64,000 bases of DNA. Source: a virus. Position numbers and translations under genes: made by a program. The notes beneath the pieces were generated by a model. The model worked only from the letters and a program-made list of their open reading frames with translations, ran no database searches and had not been told where the DNA came from. The stretch is taken from IMG/VR virus record IMGVR_UViG_3300028559_000025, positions 12,728-76,727 of that record. The stretch is one strand, 5' to 3'. Shown here one piece after another: positions 6,911 through 63,428 of the stretch; the first letter of the stretch is position 1, and every line of letters starts with the position of its first letter.

Positions 6911-7453
6911 ATGCCATATGTTAAAATATCAGACCCTAATATTATAGATCTTGCTGCTTGGCACCAAGTTATTAATGTTATTAATCAACACAGCGATACT
7001 CTTTCTGCTATCACAAATAATTTTGGTATTAAAGGAACTGCTGTTACAGACTGGAATGGCGAAACAGAAATTTACGAAGAATTTAATTCTGGCTCACAAA
7101 AAATACTTTATGGAAAGATTGTGATTGATACTAGAGCAGGTTCTGCCCAAGATTTAAACGTAAATAATTATCGTATGTTTTATCAAACAATAGATTTTGA
7201 TAACGCTCCAAGTGGAACAGCTAGCTTTAAAGCAAAACCAGTTATAACAACTTCAATATCCCTTCCTGGCTCAACTGTTACATCAGATAGAAACGTTGGT
7301 CTTATCTGTACTGTAATTGCAGTAACTCAAACAAGTTTTACGGTTCGTGTTATTAAGGCAAGAGAATTAACTGCAGAGACAGGCACAACGATTGCTGATC
7401 CAAAGCCAATTCAAACTTTTCAAATAAACTGGATTGCTATAGGACCAAAGTAA
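6911..7453 (+). CDS. Minor tail protein (lectin/gp53-like beta domain)
   Basis: Ends in INWIAIG, typical of tail-fibre H-type-lectin-like domains. Upstream TGGTATAAT and GGAG RBS. Confidence 0.5.
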
Positions 7454-10400
7454 TGGCTAAGGTACCACCTAAGTCTGTTTATAAAAGCCCCAAGTCTGTT
7501 GCTAGAAATCAACCCGTAACAATAAGTGTTGATGATCCAAGAGCAGCTTGGGATAAGATTGGACAGACTAGAGCAAGGTTAGGCTCTGAACTTGAACTTG
7601 TTGGATTAGATGACATCCCTTTAATTAGTGGAGGAAAAAGTTTAACAGCATCGGTTGGTCCACCAACATTGGGTATACCAAAAGATCTAGAAAAATTTGT
7701 AAGTCCTCCAAGTAATGGCCAAGAAGCTAAAATTGTATATGGATTTGGTGCTATAGTACCAACAGATATTACTAATGTTTCAACAGCCTGGTCAGGATCA
7801 AGTCTTGTAGTTACATTTGATTGGGACTATGCAGATCCTGCTAATGCAACCGTTACAGAATTTATTTTAGAAATAACTTTATCTACAGGCACAGTTCGTC
7901 AAACTCCATACGGTTCTTTTCCAGTAAATAGAACACAAACAGGACAAACAACAACACTTACAAAATCTTTAAATAGATCTACCCTTGGCGTATTTGGAAC
8001 AAACATTACAAGTATTTGTGTTTATGCTATTGATGCATTTTATAATACAAGTGGTAAGGTTTGTGATGCAACAGTTCCTGCATACGTGGTTAACCTACCA
8101 GTACCAGTTATTACAGTTACTTCAGCAATGAGTGGATATAGCGTAGCTTGGACAATTCCAACATCTGTTCAAGATCCAGATGAGGTGTTTGACGCTATTG
8201 ATATTTATGAATATGAGTCTAGTGCTTCTACAGAACCAACAGATGTCACTTATTCAAGGGTATACTTTGATCAAGTTTCACCAGCAAATATTATTACAGT
8301 TAATAGTAATGATAGATGGGTAAAGGCAAGATTTTCTTCAGATGGAGGAACATACACAGCATTTTCTGCTGCACAAAAAGTAACACCAACATCTCCAGTT
8401 ACAGTAGACACCACTGGACCAGCCGCTCCAACTGGATCAGTAACTGGTGGATTAGAAACTTCTGGAACGATAGGCTTTAATGCTTTCTTAAATATATCTT
8501 GGACTGCAGTATCAGATACTACTTTACGAGGGTATAGAATTAGGTTTAGACCAGTAACTACTCCAGCATCTGCTTACTCTTATGTAGACTCCCCAGGAAA
8601 TGGAACAACTTTTAGAATTACAGGTCTTGCTTCAGGCACAAGCTATGAAGTTCAAATTGCATCATATGATGAGTTTAATAACACTTCTTCATCATATCAA
8701 ACATTAACTAATAGCCCAGTGTCAACTGCTGGATCTCCCTTTATAGGAACAAATGTTTCTACAACTGGATACTTTGAAGCTGGAGTTTCTGGAACAGATA
8801 CAGGAGTTTTTAGATTTGGCTACGGGGTAGCTACTGGTAAAAGAGGCTTATCATTTAATACAAACAATTATTGGTATATAGATTCATCTCAGTCAGCGTC
8901 TTTAAAGGTTGGTGGAGCAGACAACTATGTTACTTGGGACGGCTCATCTCTTATAGTAGCTGGAGACCTACAGGCTAAAAAAGGATCGTTTAGCGGAAAC
9001 GTAAACATTGCAAGTGGTGCATCTCTATATAGTGGTACTTTAACTGGAAATACCGTTACTGCTTCTGCTAATACTGGTGGTTCATTGTCTAGTGCAGGAT
9101 ACATATTAAATGAAGATGGAATTACATTTTCTAATGGGCTATCAGGAAATGATTTAAGACAAACTACTATAGTTGGAGCAAGTGGATTACTCACAACAAA
9201 TTCAGCAAATATAGGTGGATGGATTATAACTCCAGGCTCAATAACAAAAACTGCAAGGGGAGAAGGAAAGATTTCTTTAGACTCAGCAAATGGATACATC
9301 TATGTAACTAGAGACGATGTAGAGACAATTACTGCTGGTATTAATAGTCCAAAAGATGATAACGATAATGTTTTTTGGTCTGGCGGAAGTAATCCAACAG
9401 ATGAAACAAGCCCATTTAGAGTTAGACTAAATGGAGATCTATTTGCAAGCAATGCAGAAATTAAAGGTGTTATAAGGGCTACTAGTGGTGGTTTTGGAAC
9501 ATTTGATCCATCTACTAACCTTATTACAAACGGTTGGACTATTAGTACCAATGGAATAATTGCAAAGGGTGAGGGTAGCATTAAAATTGGAAACTATTCA
9601 ATACAAACTCTTGAGCCAGACGGTTCTGATTTTTCAATAAAATATATTGCAGGTAATGAAAACCTAATAAGAACAGATTCTTTTGCTAGCAATGTTGATG
9701 ATCCAAAAAGAATATTTATAGGTGATAGTACAAGACAGGTTGAAGTTGCTAAATCAGCAAGCCTATCTGGAGCTGGTTCAATAGTAACTTTGCCAACAAG
9801 CAATGCTACAGCTCTAAGTGCTTATCGCTCAGGTGGTCTAAGAAATATATTTACTGTTTCAGAGTCCGCAAGAAGTGGTTCAACTGGAGACGGAGTAGAT
9901 TTTAGTGGAAATGTGCTAGATTATCCATCAGCAATTAAGGGTGACATGCTGATTGTTTATAAAACTACAGGAACCAATCCAGACCCTAAATGGAGAGAGG
10001 TAGTCGCAACATACGTAGCCATTACTGGTACAGCCCCTACTCCAACGCCAACACCTACTCCAACGCCAACGCCAACTCCAACGCCAACACCTACGCCAAC
10101 ACCTACACCAACTCCAACCCCTACTCCTACGCCAACACCTACGCCAACACCTACGCCAACACCTACTCCAGTACAAAGCACCTATTACTTTGTTTGTGAC
10201 GATACACAATGTGGTTCAGTACTTGCCTCATCCGCTCTTGAAGCAGTTGCACTTGGAAACGCATATTGTCAAGATAATGCAGATCCAGGACTTACAAATA
10301 ATGTAGCTGGAGGAGTATCACTAACACCAATTCCTGGTTGTGCTCCAACTCCAACACCTACTCCAACACCTACGCCAACACCTACACCAACACCTACACC

Positions 10401-10719
10401 AACACCTACGCCAACTCCAACGCCAACACCTACGCCAACACCAGTAACAGAAACAAGTAGAACAGTTGGAACCTGTATATCATATGTTTATTGCCCAGAA
10501 GGTGGAGAGAGACTAGATACTGTTTATTATTCAAATGGAACTAGTAGTGAGCAATATGTTTGCTGTTCTTATACAGCAACAGCAACTCCAACGCCAACTC
10601 CTGAACCAACACCAACCCCAACCCCTACACCAACTGAATGCCAAACATGCGGCATCTGCTGCCTGTACGGACCATGTGAATATGGCTGTGGCCCATGCGA
10701 CTTTTGGTGTGATGACTAG
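7453..10719 (+). CDS. Tail fibre/host-attachment protein with FN3 domain, Pro-Thr repeats and Cys-rich C-terminus
   Basis: FN3 (LRGYRIRF...[16 protein letters not shown]), G-rich beta repeats and three PT tracts separated by Cys-rich modules. Confidence 0.7.
10036..10170 (+). repeat. Coding (Pro-Thr)22 repeat
   Basis: CCN-ACN hexamers with variable third positions. Confidence 0.95.
10345..10443 (+). repeat. Coding (Pro-Thr)16 repeat
   Basis: Second CCN-ACN tract in the same ORF. Confidence 0.95.
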
Positions 10720-10752
10720 TATGGTAGAATTTTATAATAAAAAGGAGAAAAA

Positions 10753-11148
10753 ATGAAAAGAAAAAATTTCTATTTAAATGTAGAGGATGATAAAATCATC
10801 TTTTATTCAATAGAACTTAAAGATGATGGCTCTGTTTTAGATGATAATAAGCACAATAAAGATTATGCTTTATCTAATAGTCCAGAAATATTAAATATTA
10901 CACATTTGAATTATGTTCCAGCCAAACTTAGTGTTTGGGATGGATCAGAGTTTATTGCTCCAGAAGGGCTAGAGCACAGGCTGCCTTGTATAAGAGATTG
11001 CATAGATGGATGTATATCTTTTGCGTTTTTAAAAAATAATACGTATTATGGAATGAACGGATATTGTATTGGAGTGGCACATAATGATATGCTTATTGCT
11101 GCATTATCAAGCAATCCAACAATAACATTTGAGATTGTAGAATCTTAA
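10753..11148 (+). CDS. Hypothetical protein (possible tail fibre-associated)
   Basis: ORF with AAGGAG RBS, directly after the fibre gene. Confidence 0.5.
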   Translation: MKRKNFYLNVEDDKIIFYSIELKDDGSVLDDNKHNKDYALSNSPEILNITHLNYVPAKLSVWDGSEFIAPEGLEHRLPCIRDCIDGCISFAFLKNNTYYGMNGYCIGVAHNDMLIAALSSNPTITFEIVES

Positions 11149-11169
11149 TAATAGAATGGGTGGAATTTT

Positions 11170-11409
11170 ATGAAAGACGAATTAACTCCTTGGCAAAAGT
11201 ATAAACAAAATCTTGGAGATACAAGACCTTGGGATTTATTAAATCCGAACACAGAATATGTTAGTGATGACTTACATTCTGATAGACTTAATATATGCAA
11301 GGCTTGTCCAGAGTTTATATCTCTAACAACTCAATGTAAAAAATGTGGTTGTGTAATGAAATTTAAAACAAAGTTAGAAAAAGCAACTTGTCCAATAGGA
11401 AAATGGTAA
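11170..11409 (+). CDS. Small Cys-rich protein (DUF6171-like)
   Basis: RLNICKACP...QCKKCGC...TCPIGKW pattern. Confidence 0.6.
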   Translation: MKDELTPWQKYKQNLGDTRPWDLLNPNTEYVSDDLHSDRLNICKACPEFISLTTQCKKCGCVMKFKTKLEKATCPIGKW

Positions 11410-11412
11410 AAA

Positions 11413-12012
11413 ATGATAAAAGAAGAAGTTGCACCAGGTATAGTTGTATATAATAATGTAATTCCAGATAGCGAAAATCTATACAAAGATATTGAAGAAG
11501 GTATAATTTCTGCGGGATTAAAATGGATAGAAGCAGAAGTAAAAGAATCTTCAGATCCAATGGTAAATACTAAAACAAGAGATACAAGCGCTATTGGTAT
11601 TCCTTACATGGGTGGTCTTAAAGATATATCAACAGAAAGTAAGTCTGAGACCTTTCTTATAAACACTAATAATATGTTTTTTAAAAATTTTGATCCAATA
11701 GAAAAAGATTATATGCAAACATACGGGGTATATTCAGAGTGGCACGACACCTATGGCATTTTAAAATATGGATCTGGTCAGTTTTTCAGTAACCATATAG
11801 ATGACCACCCTACATATCATAGAAGAATTTCTACTCTATACTATTTAAATGATAACTATACAGGTGGAGAAATTAATTTTCCTCGTTTTAATATTACTTT
11901 TAAACCAAAAGCTAATCAAATGATTTTATTTCCATCAACCTATGTCTATAACCACTCAGTGTCTCCAGTTATTGAAGGAGAAAGATATGCTGTGGTTTCA
12001 TGGATGAAGTAG
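11413..12012 (+). CDS. 2OG-Fe(II) oxygenase, prolyl 4-hydroxylase-like
   Basis: HxD (HID), YLNDNYTGGEINF, distal His and 2OG-binding Arg (HSVSPVIEGERY). Confidence 0.85.
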   Translation: MIKEEVAPGIVVYNNVIPDSENLYKDIEEGIISAGLKWIEAEVKESSDPMVNTKTRDTSAIGIPYMGGLKDISTESKSETFLINTNNMFFKNFDPIEKDYMQTYGVYSEWHDTYGILKYGSGQFFSNHIDDHPTYHRRISTLYYLNDNYTGGEINFPRFNITFKPKANQMILFPSTYVYNHSVSPVIEGERYAVVSWMK

Positions 12013-12029
12013 TCTGATACAATATAAGT

Positions 12030-12959
12030 ATGGATAAAATTTTTGTAAGTCTTGCTGGGTATAGAGATCCAGATTTAATTAATACAGTTAGAAGTTTTTA
12101 CGAAAATGCAAAAAATAAAGATAATCTGTTTTTTTCTTTAGTCTCACATGAAGGACCAGAAACAAATTTTGATTTTTCATTTATACCAAAAGAACAAATA
12201 TCTTATCAAAAGATTGACTATAAATTAGCAGATGGAGCATGCTCTGGAAGACATTTAGCTAACTCCCTACTATCTGATCAATATAAATATTTTTTGCATA
12301 CAGACTCTCACTCAAGAGCAAAAGTAGAATGGGATAGAATGCTTATTGATGAATATACTAAGTGTTCTTCAAAATGGGGAACAGATTATATATTTACTAA
12401 ATACCCCCATGGATTTTTAAAAGAGTGGGATGAAAATGGAAACGGCACTGACAAAATAAATCTAAATAACGAAAGTTTACATAAGGTAGTTCCAGAGTGG
12501 GATGAAATAGAGAATGTTTATTTGTTAAGATGGAGAGACCTTGAGGACTTAGAGTTTGGCGATAAAGTTTATGGCTTTGCTGCTAACTTTGCTTTTGGTT
12601 CTGTAAAGGCATTTATGAAGGCCCCATATGATCCATATTTATATTTTCTAGGAGAAGAAATAAGCCTTGGAGTTCGTCTTTCAGTACAAGGGGTAAATCT
12701 AGTTGCCCCAGCAATCAATGCAATATATACAAATTACGATAGAGATAATGGAAAAAGGGGTGGGTTTCATTGGAATGATAATTCAAACTGGGGATTAAGA
12801 GATAAAAGCGCAAGAGAAAGACTGACAAAACTATTTACTCTACAAGATTTGGGAATGTATGGATTACAAGATCACGTTGAAGAGTATAGAGCTTTGCAAA
12901 CAGAAATGGGTCTTGACTTTGAATCAAAAGATTATATAAAGCCAATTTATAAAAACTAA
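12030..12959 (+). CDS. GT60-family glycosyltransferase ([Skp1]-hydroxyproline N-acetylglucosaminyltransferase-like)
   Basis: N-terminal IFVSLAGYRD, DSH motif (YFLHTDSHSR..WD) and PYDPYLYFLGEE, all characteristic of the Gnt1/GlcNAc family. Confidence 0.8.
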   Translation: MDKIFVSLAGYRDPDLINTVRSFYENAKNKDNLFFSLVSHEGPETNFDFSFIPKEQISYQKIDYKLADGACSGRHLANSLLSDQYKYFLHTDSHSRAKVEWDRMLIDEYTKCSSKWGTDYIFTKYPHGFLKEWDENGNGTDKINLNNESLHKVVPEWDEIENVYLLRWRDLEDLEFGDKVYGFAANFAFGSVKAFMKAPYDPYLYFLGEEISLGVRLSVQGVNLVAPAINAIYTNYDRDNGKRGGFHWNDNSNWGLRDKSARERLTKLFTLQDLGMYGLQDHVEEYRALQTEMGLDFESKDYIKPIYKN

Positions 12960-34404: not shown

Positions 34405-34476
34405 TGGGGTATAGTGAAATGGCTATCACGGAACGCTGTTAACGTTCAATACTTGGATCGTAACCAGGTACCCCAG
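34405..34476 (+). tRNA. tRNA-Asn(GUU)
   Basis: Acceptor TGGGGTA/TACCCCA, anticodon arm GAACG-CTGTTAA-CGTTC. Atypical T-loop ATCGTAA. Confidence 0.85.
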
Positions 34477-34480
34477 CAAT

Positions 34481-34554
34481 GCGGATATTGCATAGTGATA
34501 GTGCGTAACCTTGCCAAGGTTAATGTGCGGGTTTGATTCCCGCTATCCGCTCCA
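34481..34554 (+). tRNA. tRNA-Gly(GCC)
   Basis: Acceptor GCGGATA/TATCCGC, anticodon arm TAACC-TTGCCAA-GGTTA, encoded CCA. Confidence 0.9.
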
Positions 34555-42558: not shown

Positions 42559-43245
42559 ATGTCAAATACAGCTTTAATTATGTGCACTTATATAAGGTTT
42601 GAAAACCTTAAAAAAACTTTGGGTTGCATAGAAAGACAAACCAATAAAGATTTTGATTTTTATATTGTTGATAACTCTAATAGACATGAAAAGTTGTTGG
42701 GGTACCTTGATAAATTTGGCAAAGGTATTGATATAACTGTACACAACTATCATAATGAATTTAAACAGTTCGCTAGATTCTTATTGGCAAGAGATCTTGC
42801 TGAGCAAGGATATGAAAAAATTATATTTATTGATGATGATGAAATTATTCCAGACACATTTATACAGGAATGCCACGAACAATATGAAGAAGGCTCTATA
42901 AAATCTTTTTGGGCACATATGGTTGAAGAAAGATATAACAGAAAAATAAAATTAGAAAAAAATGAAATAGGTAACTACGCTGGAACAGGTGGACTTATAT
43001 GTAGCTCTAAGCTATTTTTAAATGACGACTTTTTTGATTGCCCTGAAGAATATTGGATCATTGATGATCTTTGGTTATCTTATTATGTATTAAGTTTTAC
43101 AGACTATAAGATTAAAGAACTTAAAACAAATATTCAATTTATAAAAGATATGAAGGCAACATTCATGACATTAGGAAACTTAAAACAAAAATTTTCAAAT
43201 GATTTTATTATCCCAGTATCTAAAAAGCTTGATTTAAAGCTGTAG
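42559..43245 (+). CDS. GT-A (GT2-like) glycosyltransferase
   Basis: IMCTY.R, IVDNS, IFIDDD and DDLWLS motifs. Confidence 0.8.
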   Translation: MSNTALIMCTYIRFENLKKTLGCIERQTNKDFDFYIVDNSNRHEKLLGYLDKFGKGIDITVHNYHNEFKQFARFLLARDLAEQGYEKIIFIDDDEIIPDTFIQECHEQYEEGSIKSFWAHMVEERYNRKIKLEKNEIGNYAGTGGLICSSKLFLNDDFFDCPEEYWIIDDLWLSYYVLSFTDYKIKELKTNIQFIKDMKATFMTLGNLKQKFSNDFIIPVSKKLDLKL

Positions 43246-44268
43246 CAATTCTCTATATCCTGCTATTAAACTATTGGCTGAAAAGTTTGTTAATCCTATT
43301 TGATATGCCTGATCCTTATAAATACTCATATCACTTTCATAATAATTATCAACTATTTTAGCTAACATTTTAGCATCTCCCCCATAAACATCAAGCATTA
43401 TACGAGTCATTAGCCTATCAATCTTTTTAGAGTCTGTAAGCCATTCCTGCGGAAGTATCTTGTTGTTAGGGGATATATTGGTCATAAAAACGGGTAGAGC
43501 GCTCATTAGAGCCTCGTTCATAGGTAGACATAGGCCTGCATACCGCCTTGGCATTACCATAGCGTCATAGCCTTCGTAGAGGCTTTCTCTGGTATCTGGA
43601 CTAGAGGTATCAATGACCAGTCTTGGATCATCACATTCTGTATCTAGGGGGGTTTGACTCTTGATTACAAGTTGATAATCACTCTTAGAATACTTAAGCA
43701 TTTCAATTACCGTACTTGTGCCGTTTCTATCTTTTACAGCAGCCTTGCCACCAATGTGTAATATTTTTTTGTGAGTCTTGCTTGTATTAATATTTTTTGC
43801 ACCAGCAAATAAATCTATGCTTGTTGGAGGTGGAAGATAAACTACTTTGGTTTTGTCACCAAACTTTTCAACAACATCGGTAAAGTTCCATAGGCTTGGA
43901 GCAACTAAAATGTCTGGTAGTTGAAGGTCTGGGTTGGCTAAATAGTCCAAGAATTCATAGTTGTATTGAAGAACAGTTTTAACTTTTCTTTTCTTTGCTA
44001 TAGAAATAAATGAGTTGTTGTAGAATATTTCACAACTAAGTACTACATCTAGTCCGTCTATGAACTCATATACCTCTTCTTTAGAGGCCATTCCTCGTTT
44101 AGTAGTCAAGCAATTGTACCCTTGATACCATTCTGGATGCTGCGTGTTGTCATTAAATTGCGAGGAATCAATAAGAAGAACCTTATCAGGATTAAGCATT
44201 TTAACAAGCTCTTTAGTCTGATTACCTAGTCCAGTGTTGTCAGACCTTGCAATGATTCCTAATCTCAT
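43234..44268 (-). CDS. GT-B (GT4-like) glycosyltransferase
   Basis: D..VMP...AGLCLPMNEALMSALPV motif. Confidence 0.8.
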   Translation of the reverse strand: MRLGIIARSDNTGLGNQTKELVKMLNPDKVLLIDSSQFNDNTQHPEWYQGYNCLTTKRGMASKEEVYEFIDGLDVVLSCEIFYNNSFISIAKKRKVKTVLQYNYEFLDYLANPDLQLPDILVAPSLWNFTDVVEKFGDKTKVVYLPPPTSIDLFAGAKNINTSKTHKKILHIGGKAAVKDRNGTSTVIEMLKYSKSDYQLVIKSQTPLDTECDDPRLVIDTSSPDTRESLYEGYDAMVMPRRYAGLCLPMNEALMSALPVFMTNISPNNKILPQEWLTDSKKIDRLMTRIMLDVYGGDAKMLAKIVDNYYESDMSIYKDQAYQIGLTNFSANSLIAGYRELLQL

Positions 44269-44930
44269 AAATCCATTTCTTTATATAATTGTTTTAGTCC
44301 TCTTAATGTTCCGATATCCATATACTTTCCACCAGGTTTTACCGCTGATATATTAGCACCATCAGATATCCAATCTTTTAATTGTTTACCAGGATGATCC
44401 AGGGTTGGATCTAAATATCTAATCATGTTTTTTCTAAACATCATGGTTCCCCACATATCTGGGTAATTACAATCTTCTACTTTGTCTTCAGACTTAATTA
44501 CTTTATCTCCAGATAACAATACCTGCCCTACACGACCTTTTAACTCATCACCACATTCCCAAACACCCAAAACTATATCAGCATTGGTTTCTTTAATCAT
44601 TTCTTTATAAATGTTTACAGGTGCATTTAATATATAAGTATCTGGCATTCCAACAAGCACGGTATCGTTATATTCACCAATCATAAACTTTACTGCATCA
44701 GACATTGTTGATGGCTCACGAATAATCAGCTTAATGTTCATGTCCATATTTTGTATAATATTTACCCACTCAGGTCTAGTTGATACACGAACCTCATCAC
44801 ATACTTCTAGCATTTGTTCTACATGCCACTGAAGCAAACATCTTTCATCAGAAATAGGTAGGCAAAACTTTGGTATTCCTCCAATTCTGGAGGCCTTTCC
44901 AGATGCTGGTAAAACTCCTATTGTTTGCAT
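44265..44930 (-). CDS. Sugar-phosphate nucleotidyltransferase
   Basis: LPASGKASR.GG.PK.LP, GMPDT and YMDIGT motifs. Confidence 0.85.
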   Translation of the reverse strand: MQTIGVLPASGKASRIGGIPKFCLPISDERCLLQWHVEQMLEVCDEVRVSTRPEWVNIIQNMDMNIKLIIREPSTMSDAVKFMIGEYNDTVLVGMPDTYILNAPVNIYKEMIKETNADIVLGVWECGDELKGRVGQVLLSGDKVIKSEDKVEDCNYPDMWGTMMFRKNMIRYLDPTLDHPGKQLKDWISDGANISAVKPGGKYMDIGTLRGLKQLYKEMDL

Positions 44931-45724
44931 TATTTTAACCCATAGTTTTTCTTTAATGTCGCTATATCATTTACTGGCCAATAGTCTAAAGATTTTGTAG
45001 GATCGTTAAATGGATATTTATATTCTCCCCAACCTTCTCTTGTTCTATCTCCGCCCCATTTAGCCTTAAAGTAATCATGAAGAGGTTCAATGTTAATTCT
45101 TAGTCCGTCTATTGTTGCACCGCCGTCTATTTGACATGATACATCAACTTCTGCAGCAGGTGCGTTTATTCTCATTACATAACTTATAGGTGTATTAGAA
45201 TGTACAAACTGACTACGCCAAGAAACTGCAACATCCGAATCAGGGTTTATTATAACTTGTTCTTCAAGTATTCTGCACCTTTGATCCCAGTCACAGTCAT
45301 CAAAATTATATGGATAAAAATTTTCATCAAAATATCCAATTGCTGAAACTAATTTTTTATTGATTCCACAAAGATGCCACCCATGCTGTGTTCTAAACAT
45401 TAAACCATTGAAGTCTTTAAGCATATCAATGATATGTGAAAAAGGCTGATTAAACAACATTGAAGATGAAACAACAAATGTCCAATCATGATTCTTTTTT
45501 AATGCTACATTCCATGCTCTTGCTAACCCAATGTTCTCTGACTGATACTCTACCTGAAATCCATACTTTTTTTCAAATACTTCACACTCTCTGTTTCCAC
45601 TATTATCTATAAGTAAAACATTTTTATCTCTTATAGATTCCATACATTTATATATTCTTTCTGTTACTCTATAAACAGGGATACAAATTAGATAATCAAT
45701 CTCAGTATCTGTTTGCATAAACAT
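44930..45724 (-). CDS. GT2-family glycosyltransferase
   Basis: ICIPVY, LIDNS, NIGLARAWN and IGYFDENFYP..FDD.D motifs. Confidence 0.82.
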   Translation of the reverse strand: MFMQTDTEIDYLICIPVYRVTERIYKCMESIRDKNVLLIDNSGNRECEVFEKKYGFQVEYQSENIGLARAWNVALKKNHDWTFVVSSSMLFNQPFSHIIDMLKDFNGLMFRTQHGWHLCGINKKLVSAIGYFDENFYPYNFDDCDWDQRCRILEEQVIINPDSDVAVSWRSQFVHSNTPISYVMRINAPAAEVDVSCQIDGGATIDGLRINIEPLHDYFKAKWGGDRTREGWGEYKYPFNDPTKSLDYWPVNDIATLKKNYGLK

Positions 45725-46400
45725 ATCCTCCTCTTTCGGGACTACCTAAAATTTCAATGCCAAACTGTTTTGAAAGCTTTTCAATCATGATGCCAAACCT
45801 TCCGTCAAAAGATTTATCAAACTCAAGTGTTAAATATCTAATCTTTGAAAGTATTTCTGGGGGGGTATTAATTATAAGATCAAATTCAGCACCTTCAATA
45901 TCAATCTTCATAACATCTATCTCATCAATACCGTAACGTTCAACAAGGTCTTGAATTGTAATTGCTAAAACCTCAACAGATTCAGTTAATCCTCCATCAA
46001 CAATGCTGCTATTACCACCTCTATTTGTAATAAAAACATTTTTTTGTTCATACCAAATAGCATTATTGACTACTGTAATATTTTCAGTTGGATTATTTTT
46101 AATATTTTCTTTTAACAAGAAGAAATTGTGTGGCTCAGGTTCAATTGAATAAACTTTTATCTTGTTTGCATCTTCTCTAAACTTATTAAAGCTATCTACA
46201 TACAGACTAACAGACCCAATGTTTGCACCAATATCAATAAATACTGCATTTTCTTTAAACTGATATTCATGTAGTCTATAAACATTTTCATTCCATGTTT
46301 CATCAACTACTTTATAGTCTAAATTATGATCATCACTTGGATCATCTAGCAACTCTCTAATTTTAAAGGAGTAGTTTGTATCTATAGTATTGTAATTCAT
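45702..46400 (-). CDS. FkbM-family methyltransferase
   Basis: IDIGANIG, IEP and KIDIEGAE motifs. Confidence 0.9.
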   Translation of the reverse strand: MNYNTIDTNYSFKIRELLDDPSDDHNLDYKVVDETWNENVYRLHEYQFKENAVFIDIGANIGSVSLYVDSFNKFREDANKIKVYSIEPEPHNFFLLKENIKNNPTENITVVNNAIWYEQKNVFITNRGGNSSIVDGGLTESVEVLAITIQDLVERYGIDEIDVMKIDIEGAEFDLIINTPPEILSKIRYLTLEFDKSFDGRFGIMIEKLSKQFGIEILGSPERGGYVYANRY

Positions 46401-47338
46401 AGTCCCAGCTCTTCAAGTATATGCTTCCATCTATGTTTGTAGGTATAGTTATTCTTCACTAACTCATGCCCTGCAATTCTTATTTGCTCACGTTCTTCTT
46501 CATGTTCTACATAATAGTCAATTAATTCCTTCAGTTGTTCAAAATTTCCATACTCATAAAAAACTAAATGCTTTCTATCTTCAAATTCTTTTTCCATCCC
46601 TTGAACATATGGATGTATAAGAAAACCACCACGACCAAGAGTTTCATAAACACGATCAGACCAATAGTCAGGGTAGTTAAAGTTTAGACATAACGTATCT
46701 CCAACAACTACCTTAGTAGTCCAGTATATTTTATTTAAAGAAATTCCACGAACACTTTTGATACCACCGCTACCATAGTGCTCAAATCTATTTTTGTATG
46801 TATCTTCAAGCCATTCAACTAACTTTGTTCTATATTGCCACTCTGGATGATATTTTTTACTACCAACAAACAACACCTTACGATTAGTTATGCTTGGCCT
46901 ATAAATACATTCTTCTCCAAATACTCCTGCAGGAAGATAGTGACCCTTAACGTTGGTCTTTTCATTAAACCATTGAGCCATTTGGCTATCAACGGTAAAG
47001 AAGTGATCAATTAATTTGTATACAGGAAATGATTCAAGGTCTTTCTGTCTTTGAAGGCCAAACCATAAGTCAAGGTGGTATGTCATACTTGGGATAGATA
47101 ACGTTTTTAATCTTTCAAGTAGCTTTTCCATAGTTATTTTTCCTGAAGTCTGCCAACCATGTGTATGTATCCAAATAAAAAGATCACTATTTACACAAGC
47201 AGCCAAGATATCTTCTGACCTAGCGTCAGACTCTTGCATCCTAACAACTTTATGTCCAAGTGCCTCTAAAGACTTGGCATGGTGAGATTCGCTGGTATAG
47301 TCAACACGAAAGTTACCTAAAAAAACTATATTAGCCAA
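46397..47338 (-). CDS. CgeB-like (GT-B) glycosyltransferase
   Basis: YWSDRVYETLGRGGFL...EEREQIRIAG.ELV...YTY..R. Confidence 0.82.
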   Translation of the reverse strand: MANIVFLGNFRVDYTSESHHAKSLEALGHKVVRMQESDARSEDILAACVNSDLFIWIHTHGWQTSGKITMEKLLERLKTLSIPSMTYHLDLWFGLQRQKDLESFPVYKLIDHFFTVDSQMAQWFNEKTNVKGHYLPAGVFGEECIYRPSITNRKVLFVGSKKYHPEWQYRTKLVEWLEDTYKNRFEHYGSGGIKSVRGISLNKIYWTTKVVVGDTLCLNFNYPDYWSDRVYETLGRGGFLIHPYVQGMEKEFEDRKHLVFYEYGNFEQLKELIDYYVEHEEEREQIRIAGHELVKNNYTYKHRWKHILEELGL

Positions 47339-47374
47339 GACTACCCCTTTGTTTTAACCATTATACCAGAATAG

Positions 47375-47446
47375 CACCCCTGATTGGATTTGAACCAACG
47401 ACCTGCGGATTAGAAGTCCGTCGCTCTTCCGCTGAGCTACAGGGGT
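47375..47446 (-). tRNA. tRNA-Arg(UCU)
   Basis: Acceptor ACCCCTG/CAGGGGT, anticodon loop CTTCTAA, T-loop TTCAAAT. Confidence 0.88.
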
Positions 47447-47447
47447 A

Positions 47448-47524
47448 TGGTAGAGCAGGTGAGAATTGAACTCACGATCTTCAGTATATAAGACTGGTGC
47501 CTTTACCAACTTGGCTACTGGTGT
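47448..47524 (-). tRNA. tRNA-Ile(UAU) with a defective acceptor stem
   Basis: Good D, anticodon (CTTATAT) and T arms plus CCA, but acceptor ACACCAG/CTGCTCT has two C-C mismatches. Confidence 0.65.
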
Positions 47525-47528
47525 TTAG

Positions 47529-47603
47529 TAGGGCAAGTGGGACTTGAACCCACACCTTCCAATTTATGAGATTGAAGCTACTAACCAATTAAGCTATTGC
47601 CCC
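47529..47603 (-). tRNA. tRNA with CAU anticodon (Met or Ile2)
   Basis: Acceptor GGGGCAA/TTGCCCT, anticodon loop CTCATAA, T-loop TTCAAGT. Confidence 0.85.
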
Positions 47604-56870: not shown

Positions 56871-57008
56871 TCTACAATAGGAGGACAAAAGGTCTCTGGA
56901 GCTAATTTTTATTTACATTTAATTAAACAAGGTTTGCCAGATGGCTATCAGACATTATGTGCTAATTGCAATAATATTAAACAATGGGATCGTGTAAAGC
57001 GGTTCTAA
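56871..57008 (+). pseudogene. C-terminal remnant of an HNH endonuclease
   Basis: Translates as ...FYLHLIKQGLPDGYQTLCANCNNIK...; no start codon before the in-frame stop at 56829. Confidence 0.6.
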
Positions 57009-57071
57009 CGAGAATTGAACTCGTGCTTCGGCAGTGACAGTGCCGTGTCCTAACCACTGGACCATAGAACC
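57000..57071 (-). tRNA. tRNA-Asp(GUC)
   Basis: Acceptor GGTTCTA/TAGAACC, anticodon arm CGGCA-CTGTCAC-TGCCG, T-loop TTCAATT. Confidence 0.9.
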
Positions 57072-63214: not shown

Positions 63215-63428
63215 ATTGTCACCTTCTTTTCTTTTTGGTTATATAAATATCTTACCATAGGGGTCTGACATTTCTAGCGGTTCTAAGGGGTAACGCTCCC
63301 CTTATTCTAGGTTGACAACCTAGCGTGATTACTTTTTCACTATAAAACCTTATTTATTTTTATATCTAATTATAGCATTTTTGGCTGACATTATCAAATC
63401 CAAATTCGGACATATCCGACATTTTGAA

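Follow-up and report, generated by a model that had tools for sequence, protein, structure and literature searches.

What does an uncultured tailed phage of lakes do with two enzyme genes, one for an oxygenase of the prolyl 4-hydroxylase (P4H) type and one for a glycosyltransferase (GT) of family GT60, placed behind a tail fibre gene that encodes long proline-threonine (PT) linkers? The question arises from a 64,000-nucleotide stretch (the window; positions 12,728 to 76,727) that makes up most of IMG/VR virus record IMGVR_UViG_3300028559_000025, a linear sequence of 76.7 kb with a CheckV completeness estimate of 72%. A fibre protein of 1088 amino acids (aa) is followed there by four small co-directional genes, encoding a 131-aa protein (O131), a DUF6171 protein, the oxygenase and the GT60 enzyme. 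The answer that we favour, at a probability of about 60%, is that these genes form a modular cassette of a fibre tip plus its tailoring enzymes, and that the enzymes modify the linkers of their own fibre. The comparative pattern argues well for the view that the enzymes are present because of the linker-bearing fibre tip.

Recurrence of the cassette behind linker-bearing fibres

IMG/VR has at least 564 stretches with a GT60-like gene, and about 100 loci centred on such a gene were compared (L numbers below denote loci). The IMG/VR counts rest on the best 80 matches per scan of far larger sets, the contigs are often fragments, and the open reading frames (ORFs) of related loci were called mechanically from stop to stop. 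Because related contigs are not independent events, Fisher values are naive. In a quick IQ-TREE phylogeny the GT60 sequences fall into two supergroups, one of which, with 47 rows and an SH-aLRT support of 99, is that of the cassettes. The gene order that recurs is a linker-bearing protein, often an O131-like ORF, DUF6171, an oxygenase and GT60. Where DUF6171 stands near GT60 and the upstream DNA is long enough, a protein with a Pro-X or poly-Thr tract is encoded just upstream in 29 of 31 loci, compared with 2 of 43 in the other supergroup, which lacks DUF6171 (naive Fisher 6e-16). Most cassette loci have a backbone unlike that of the window, with a downstream lysozyme gene on the opposite strand and then structural genes, so the module is present in at least two genome architectures. 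The sequence-only reading of this DNA had pointed to the clustering of the fibre with both enzymes, and this clustering is no accident of one contig: a compact, swappable module recurs behind linker-bearing fibres in hundreds of lake-phage contigs.

The association can be followed inside the window's own fibre lineage. The N-terminal 846 aa of the fibre, used as a query, have homologues of 39-72% identity in 29 IMG/VR loci; many of these have the window's downstream genes, and the syntenic lineage of the window was recognised by such genes of 193, 72, 106 and 407 aa. All five lineage loci with a linker extension on the fibre (the window, L228, L229, L230 and L234) have GT60, whereas it is present in none of the 22 loci (about 13 distinct) whose fibre lacks linkers, for which 8 kb of downstream DNA was checked. 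The co-occurrence of linkers with enzymes that the sequence-only reading had suggested looking for across relatives is thus found at close range.

The linkers and the genes behind them differ within this lineage. PT linkers in the window precede O131, DUF6171, the P4H-like oxygenase and GT60. In L228 and L229, (VTPP)n linkers are followed by a 138-aa ORF, DUF6171, the oxygenase-like protein X189 (described below), GT60, and cupin-like and DUF6065 genes. The poly-Thr linker of L230 and L234 is followed by O131, DUF6171 and a DUF7164-GT60 fusion, with no oxygenase. One further locus, L236, has poly-Thr exactly where the window has PT, between nearly identical flanks; its contig stops before the downstream genes. 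The three lineage cassettes use three different GT60 lineages, and the association must therefore have been assembled repeatedly.

Some of these relatives have peculiarities of their own. In the fusion (L230:12388-14163, also in L234), which is 592 aa long, the GT60 domain lies behind the DUF7164 domain and is not of the same supergroup as the GT of the window. The GT60 of a (VTPP)n cassette (L228:11345-12337) has C-G-H in place of D-x-H, so its first metal ligand has apparently been lost; the same cassette also encodes a cupin/JmjC-like protein, a DUF6065 protein and a 305-aa protein with a GCSHTFG motif. At L232:10056-12764 (also in L233, L235 and L237) the fibre ends at ...GDVVLLYTP, where the window's extension starts. 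A separate ORF of 880-900 aa, made of short Cys-bounded Thr/Ser-rich repeats, comes next, then a DUF6171-like gene, with neither GT60 nor oxygenase.

It could be argued that the region behind the fibre gene is simply a hot spot for accessory genes, and that the fibre is not what the enzymes act on. The GT would then have its target in the host envelope, in some other phage protein or in a small molecule, and the oxygenase, as a general auxiliary enzyme, would modify for example nucleic acid, a host protein or a metabolite. The content of the slot does vary, with P4H-like or X189 oxygenases, cupin, DUF6065, radical SAM/SPASM, epimerase, sulfotransferase and other GT-like genes, and GT60 genes of the other supergroup occur in phages without a nearby linker protein. 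Sugar genes also form a second cluster elsewhere in the window, at 42.5-47.3 kb. We regard this explanation as improbable. It does not account for the cassette following the linker extension in a single syntenic lineage (5/5 against 0/22), for the oxygenase following the proline content of the linkers in three differently centred samples, or for three unrelated GT60 lineages at the same position behind linker-bearing fibres.

Enzyme content and linker composition

Comparing enzyme content with linker composition requires an account of X189, a 189-aa protein that occupies the oxygenase slot in many related cassettes and is not in the window. X189 has no Pfam match, and an hhalign comparison with the P4H-like set was not significant. 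Its alignment has invariant H97-x-D99 and H143-W-R145, and its predicted structure (pLDDT, the predicted local distance difference test score, 90.7) is a double-stranded beta-helix (DSBH) oxygenase with Foldseek matches to PHD2, Pseudomonas P4H, AlkB and vCPH of chlorovirus PBCV-1 (E about 1e-6, TM score about 0.6). Judging by this model, X189 is a divergent member of the DSBH 2-oxoglutarate (2OG) oxygenase family. Given its fold and HxD...HWR pattern, the slot would always hold an oxygenase of the iron/2OG type, from either family; both stand together in L064 and several other loci.

With both families counted, an oxygenase goes with almost every linker that contains proline, and with no linker of threonine alone. 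The GT-centred sample has 24 Pro-linker cassettes, 22 of them with an oxygenase, and 5 poly-Thr cassettes, all without one. A third sample, centred on DUF6171, added 78 new loci, 41 of them with enough flanking DNA. There the oxygenase is found in all 27 Pro-linker loci and in one mixed locus, while both poly-Thr loci have GT60 and neither has an oxygenase; 11 loci have no linkers, and 8 of these have neither enzyme. GT60 is distributed differently, as it occurs in only 8 of the 27 Pro-linker loci and in all 7 poly-Thr loci with enough flanking DNA (L055, L056, L090, L093, L096, L230 and L234), to which L330 can be added. The GTs of the poly-Thr clade formed by L055, L056, L090, L093 and L096 are 50-58% identical to each other, which means that the oxygenase-free poly-Thr state is old and stable.

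Exceptions to the pairing run in both directions. PT-linker cassettes without an oxygenase are found in L038, L044, L045 and L257 (from a pond metagenome-assembled genome, MAG), and the GT of L045 is 92% identical to that of L037, which does have the oxygenase. PF13640, the Pfam family of the P4H-like oxygenases, was not found in the whole records of L038, L044, L045, L055 and L096, all five of which are fragments. Conversely, three CheckV-complete genomes combine a Pro-rich linker, DUF6171 and an oxygenase, with no GT60 above the cut-off anywhere in the genome. Since each enzyme occurs without the other, the two behave as independent modules, the oxygenase tracking proline and GT60 tracking threonine. 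Most likely, then, the same linkers undergo two separate tailoring steps, in which prolines would be hydroxylated and threonines would be O-glycosylated.

This bears on the specific pathway that the sequence-only reading had put forward, modelled on the protist protein Skp1. The oxygenase would make 4-hydroxyproline (Hyp), to which GT60 would add alpha-linked N-acetylglucosamine (GlcNAc), with hydroxylation as the obligatory priming step. The components, their clustering and their co-variation with the linkers stood up in our comparison, but the specific pathway, GT60 action on hydroxylase-made Hyp, was not supported. The proposal has real attractions. The families of the protist enzymes PhyA and Gnt1 adjoin each other here, 17 nucleotides apart, behind a Pro-rich substrate; both enzymes are of soluble, cytoplasmic types, which suits phage assembly; and in the GT60 subclade of the window (the window and L003-L029) an oxygenase of either type lies between DUF6171 and the GT in every locus with enough DNA. 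Obligatory coupling is called into question, however, by the poly-Thr loci listed above, which span two unrelated GT60 lineages, by the PT loci L038, L044 and L045 (fragment records), in which GT60 and DUF6171 occur without the oxygenase, and by the three complete genomes with an oxygenase and a Pro-rich linker and no GT60. Furthermore, the characterised GT60 enzymes other than Gnt1 glycosylate threonine in Thr/Pro-rich mucin domains (PMC3769586, PMC8724618). The Skp1-type scheme is thus doubtful, and threonine is at least as likely as Hyp to be the GT60 acceptor. No Skp1-like gene turned up in the window, where no search was aimed at Skp1.

A narrower version of the scheme is unlikely to a similar degree. 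The window's own subclade, always accompanied by an oxygenase, would make Hyp-O-GlcNAc on PT linkers, and the poly-Thr cassettes would be a Thr-specific branch of the same family. If Hyp-O-GlcNAc were indeed formed on the linkers, bacterial viruses would have their first case of hydroxyproline glycosylation, and with it a counterpart in the prokaryotic world, possibly an evolutionary relative, of the protist Skp1 pathway.

The Cys-rich modules between the linkers could also be the common target. DUF6171 and the oxygenase or GT would then fold, metallate or modify these modules, and the linkers would be passive spacers. DUF6171 is the most constant partner gene across cassettes, occurring even behind the Cys/Thr-rich second fibre ORF of the L232 type, which is without GT60 and oxygenase, and every linker-bearing protein seen also has Cys-rich modules. 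Yet the type of enzyme follows the Pro or Thr content of the linkers, and homologous Cys modules occur with both: the fibre tips of the poly-Thr clade have Cys modules apparently homologous to those of the window. The GT60 and P4H families, moreover, are known for acting on extended Pro/Thr-rich peptides. For these reasons a role of the Cys modules as the common target seems very improbable, and modification of the linkers is the better explanation.

Cassettes that lack GT60 (such as L297:7796-10513, L337, L338, L311 and L287) often have further genes behind the oxygenase that are candidates for tailoring, among them those for an NAD-dependent epimerase/dehydratase, a sulfotransferase (L338, and also L054), radical SAM/SPASM proteins (L287, L330) and a cupin (L291). 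A 317-aa protein beginning MSFILLSHWHGRFGNRMHQYAYG, with HWHGRFGNRMHQYAYG at its N-terminus, is found there as well; this N-terminus presumably resembles that of fucosyltransferases.

Several points weigh against the idea that the enzymes are dedicated to the linkers. Among 120 IMG/VR loci chosen only for a tract encoding (PT)10, at least one cassette family is nearby in 15 and none in 105, and viral contigs often have long PT tracts whatever their GC content; the cassette is therefore optional, not required, for PT linkers. Eight of the 41 DUF6171 loci have no linker, oxygenase or GT. The poly-Thr, oxygenase-free state is seen in about three lineages only, and the counts throughout are phylogenetically non-independent. 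PF13640 oxygenases are common in aquatic phages and their substrates are possibly not proteins; X189, going by its structural matches, also resembles AlkB-type nucleic-acid oxygenases. The region downstream of the fibre gene may be a tolerated insertion site for accessory genes. Finally, the substrate, the sugar and the site of modification are all inferred.

Components of the cassette and a possible pathway

The window has the gene order of a siphovirus-like tailed phage. A tape-measure-like ORF is followed by a 1663-aa minor tail protein, a 180-aa ORF, the 1088-aa fibre, the four small genes and then replication genes, including those for a helicase, a primase and a DNA polymerase. The cassette genes, all on the plus strand, are separated by 33, 21, 3 and 17 nucleotides, with 198 nucleotides after the GT gene. 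Oxygenase, DUF6171 and GT60 each occur once in a search of the 76.7-kb record. A scan for promoters and terminators found fewer promoter-like sites than in shuffled sequences and no convincing terminator, and is uninformative about an operon.

The fibre gene (7453-10719) encodes a tail fibre or receptor-binding-type protein, the proposed substrate, as judged from a match to the minor tail protein family phrog_11445 (E 5.4e-15), an fn3 match and its position after the tape-measure-like and minor-tail genes. Its N-terminal part of about 850 aa is common to homologues in related phages, and the C-terminal part of about 230 aa is an extension in which Cys-rich modules alternate with PT linkers. 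All three PT tracts reported in the sequence-only reading lie in this ORF. Linker 1, (PT)22, spans aa 862-905 (10036-10167) and precedes Cys-rich module 1 (aa 906-964, 10168-10344; Cys 915, 920, 939 and 963). Linker 2, (PT)16, spans aa 965-996 (10345-10440) and precedes module 2 (aa 997-1044, 10441-10584; Cys 1008, 1014, 1037 and 1038). The shorter linker 3, of 17 residues, covers aa 1045-1061 (10585-10635) and leads to a Cys-rich C-terminal tip with eight Cys in 27 aa, which ends with the stop codon (10636-10719). The pattern YY..C..ALxA..C of module 1 recurs in the fibre tips of L055, L056 and L228 in an unscored comparison by eye. No other ORF within the window has long Pro/Thr tracts. Tandem Repeats Finder reports periods of 12-48 nucleotides with 79-91% matches in the PT-coding DNA; since codons vary while the peptide repeat is kept, selection on the peptide is indicated rather than recent slippage.

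The oxygenase (11413-12012, 199 aa) matches PF13640 (2OG-FeII_Oxy_3) with E 2.2e-18 and 67.4 bits, well above the cut-off of 27, and scores 69.4 bits in the whole-genome search. Its iron triad is H128-x-D130 and H181, and R191 stands ten residues past the distal His. The best solved relatives are structures of the Bacillus anthracis P4H (3itq and 5hv0; E about 7e-6, 6.8e-6 for 3itq), in which H, D, H and K align with H128, D130, H181 and R191. The gene thus is the 2OG-Fe(II), P4H-like one that had been read from its motifs, with metal and 2OG ligands intact. The P4H match itself reaches only E about 7e-6, and PKHD-type and PiuC-type hydroxylases come next. PBCV-1 vCPH is a weak sequence match (E 0.12), and NCBIfam gives only sub-threshold matches to Fe2+-dependent dioxygenases, with no match for the other cassette genes.

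The GT gene (12030-12959) encodes 309 aa, without a lectin domain, and is predicted to be a polypeptide glycosyltransferase. Its assignment to GT60, first made from motifs alone, is borne out by the PF11397 ('GlcNAc') profile, which it matches with E 1.9e-36 and 126.7 bits (cut-off 21) in two stretches, profile positions 2-37 and 95-316. The motifs are YRDPD (aa 11), D92-S-H94 and PYDPYLYFLGEE (aa 199). All 22 GT relatives in an alignment that reaches down to 27% identity keep D92 and H94, and H247, a putative Mn2+ ligand, is at least 90% conserved. The AlphaFold model (pLDDT 94.5) has as its top Foldseek matches the GT27 enzymes GalNAc-T2, T10, T12, PGANT9 and TgGalNAc-T3 (E 1e-9 to 1e-8, TM score about 0.6 on the query), with no GT60 structure among the matches. 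By this model the fold most resembles that of GT27 polypeptide GalNAc-transferases in their catalytic domains.

Between the fibre and oxygenase genes lie two genes that were absent from the earlier account. O131 (10753-11148) has no match in Pfam, PHROG or NCBIfam and belongs to no known family; with a locally built hidden Markov model it is found in 21-27 ORFs of related loci, directly after the fibre gene in many cassettes. It is only weakly related to the 138-157-aa ORFs of L228, L038 and L045. From its position, O131 may be a fibre assembly or chaperone protein. The DUF6171 protein (11170-11409, 79 aa; PF19668, E 4.3e-7, 30.7 bits, cut-off 27; phrog_13558) has Cys 43, 46, 56, 59, 61 and 74, invariant in an alignment of 29 sequences. 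Its family is almost wholly viral and is encoded by at least 570 IMG/VR stretches. In one locus (L033:350-1444) DUF6171 and GT60 share a single ORF of 365 aa, in which ...CPLGKW joins ETIFISIASYRD without a linker. A predicted complex of GT60 with DUF6171 scored 0.02, below threshold.

These components suggest how a linker-tailoring cassette might work. The C-terminal fibre extension would consist of small Cys-rich modules, of the disulfide or metal type, carried on flexible PT linkers, and the four genes behind the fibre gene would be expressed together with the late structural genes. The enzymes would then act on freshly made fibre in the host cytoplasm before assembly. Using O2, 2-oxoglutarate and Fe(II), the P4H-type oxygenase would hydroxylate linker prolines. 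The GT60 enzyme, as a putative Mn-dependent, retaining, mucin-type polypeptide N-acetylhexosaminyltransferase, would place a sugar on the linkers, presumably drawing on host UDP-GlcNAc by analogy with its family; the acceptors would most probably be Thr hydroxyls and less probably the new Hyp residues. The DUF6171 protein and O131 could assist either the fibre tip or the enzymes as accessory factors. The benefit to the phage would be a stiff, extended, protease-resistant stalk, mucin- or extensin-like, that presents the Cys-rich tip modules.

Relation to known systems and genome setting

The cassette appears to combine known kinds of modification: virus-encoded glycosylation of the virion, mucin-type GT60 glycosylation and viral prolyl hydroxylation. 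Self-glycosylation of phage particles is known from few cases only. Freeman and colleagues reportedly described in 2023, in Cell Host Microbe, mycobacteriophage GTs that O-glycosylate their own capsid and tail-tube proteins. Such phages would share with ours the decoration of virion proteins by phage GTs in the bacterial cytoplasm, and they would differ in GT families, hosts, substrates (C-terminal Ser/Thr tails of the capsid and tail-tube proteins) and the lack of a hydroxylase. The literature searched does not describe GT60, DUF6171 or prolyl hydroxylation in a tailed phage, and no publication in it mentions DUF6171. To our knowledge, prolyl hydroxylation of a phage protein has not been described before.

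The GT60 family has so far been described only from prokaryotes and protists, and shares with GT27 the DxH motif (in place of DxD) and the mode of polypeptide O-glycosylation (PMC7185993). GT60 enzymes have no lectin domain (PMC8724618). The closest parallels to the phage GT are Dictyostelium Gnt2/modB and Trypanosoma cruzi TcOGNT-2, which have the same PF11397/GT60 domain, DxH motif, GT27-like fold and lack of a lectin domain. Their acceptors are Thr-rich, Pro-flanked, low-complexity tracts that resemble the poly-Thr and PT linkers of the phages; the test acceptor peptide of TcOGNT-2 was KPPTTTTTTTTKPP (PMC3769586). The protist enzymes are Golgi membrane proteins that act on secreted mucins, whereas the phage GT is a 309-aa soluble protein of the bacterial cytoplasm with a proposed virion protein target and a DUF6171 partner. 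The Skp1 pathway of Dictyostelium and Toxoplasma, in which PhyA acts before Gnt1, likewise joins a cytoplasmic P4H-type oxygenase, a cytoplasmic GT60 and a Pro-containing target, but the phages have no single-site target and do not co-inherit the two enzymes.

For the oxygenase, the nearest viral precedent is vCPH of PBCV-1 (PDB 5c5t), where a virus-encoded P4H-type enzyme accompanies virus-encoded Pro-rich repeats and is also among the structural matches of X189. PBCV-1, unlike the window phage, is a eukaryotic giant virus; its substrate repeats are of the PAPK type, unlike PT, and we know of no GT60 or DUF6171 gene next to its P4H. In cellular organisms, the 'PT box' linkers of Cellulomonas fimi cellulases are O-glycosylated and plant and algal extensins bear Hyp-O-arabinosides. 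In these systems, too, small binding modules are joined by PT or Pro-rich linkers, which owe their stiffness and protease resistance to O-glycans, Hyp or both. They differ in that the proteins are cellular and secreted, and in that other enzymes are used (mannosyltransferases; the GT95/GT96 hydroxyproline arabinosyltransferases, HPATs); none is in a virus of bacteria.

Should the linker-tailoring reading be correct, many aquatic phages would carry mucin- or extensin-like stalks on their receptor-binding tips, with a bearing on adsorption, resistance to proteases and grazing, and host range. It would give a function to abundant 'orphan' 2OG oxygenases of aquatic phages, and would supply small, soluble polypeptide GlcNAc-transferases and prolyl hydroxylases that are active in bacterial cytoplasm and have a defined natural peptide substrate. 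The finding also bears on the origin of the GT60 family. In Saprospiraceae / Bacteroidota MAG contigs (L266:3308-9794 and L271:4822-10712), P4H-like genes stand directly before ORFs of about 1500 aa with a GT60 domain, possibly a cellular counterpart of the phage pairing.

INPHARED phage records contain no DNA relatives of the region, and protein matches there come only from jumbo Xanthomonas and Stenotrophomonas phages, whose GTs are 24-25% identical. In a scan of genome contigs, close relatives were seen only in two MAG contigs, viral-looking or unresolved, and cellular homologues are multidomain and at most 29% identical, so the host is not assignable. Lake-water metagenome contigs do contain the fibre and cassette region, none of the sequencing runs listed for it being of RNA. 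Contigs from four lake-water runs end at the PT tracts, with no insertions or deletions listed. In these runs, the contig depth sums to 400-2800 over the first tract (window 10029-10212) and to 5-50 on the flanks; near-identical PT-coding repeats must therefore be present on very many other contigs of these lakes.

The second sugar-gene cluster of the window (42559-47338) begins with a GT2 gene (42559-43245, plus strand), after which minus-strand genes encode a GT1-like protein, a MobA-like NTP transferase, a GT2, an FkbM methyltransferase and a Glyco_trans_1_2 protein. This cluster could serve to extend a fibre glycan or to modify something else. Three tRNA genes (47374-47603) adjoin it. The 64-kb window has seven in all (Asn, Gly, Arg-TCT, Ile-TAT, Met and two Asp-GTC), the others lying at 34405-34554, 56999-57071 and 63277-63349.

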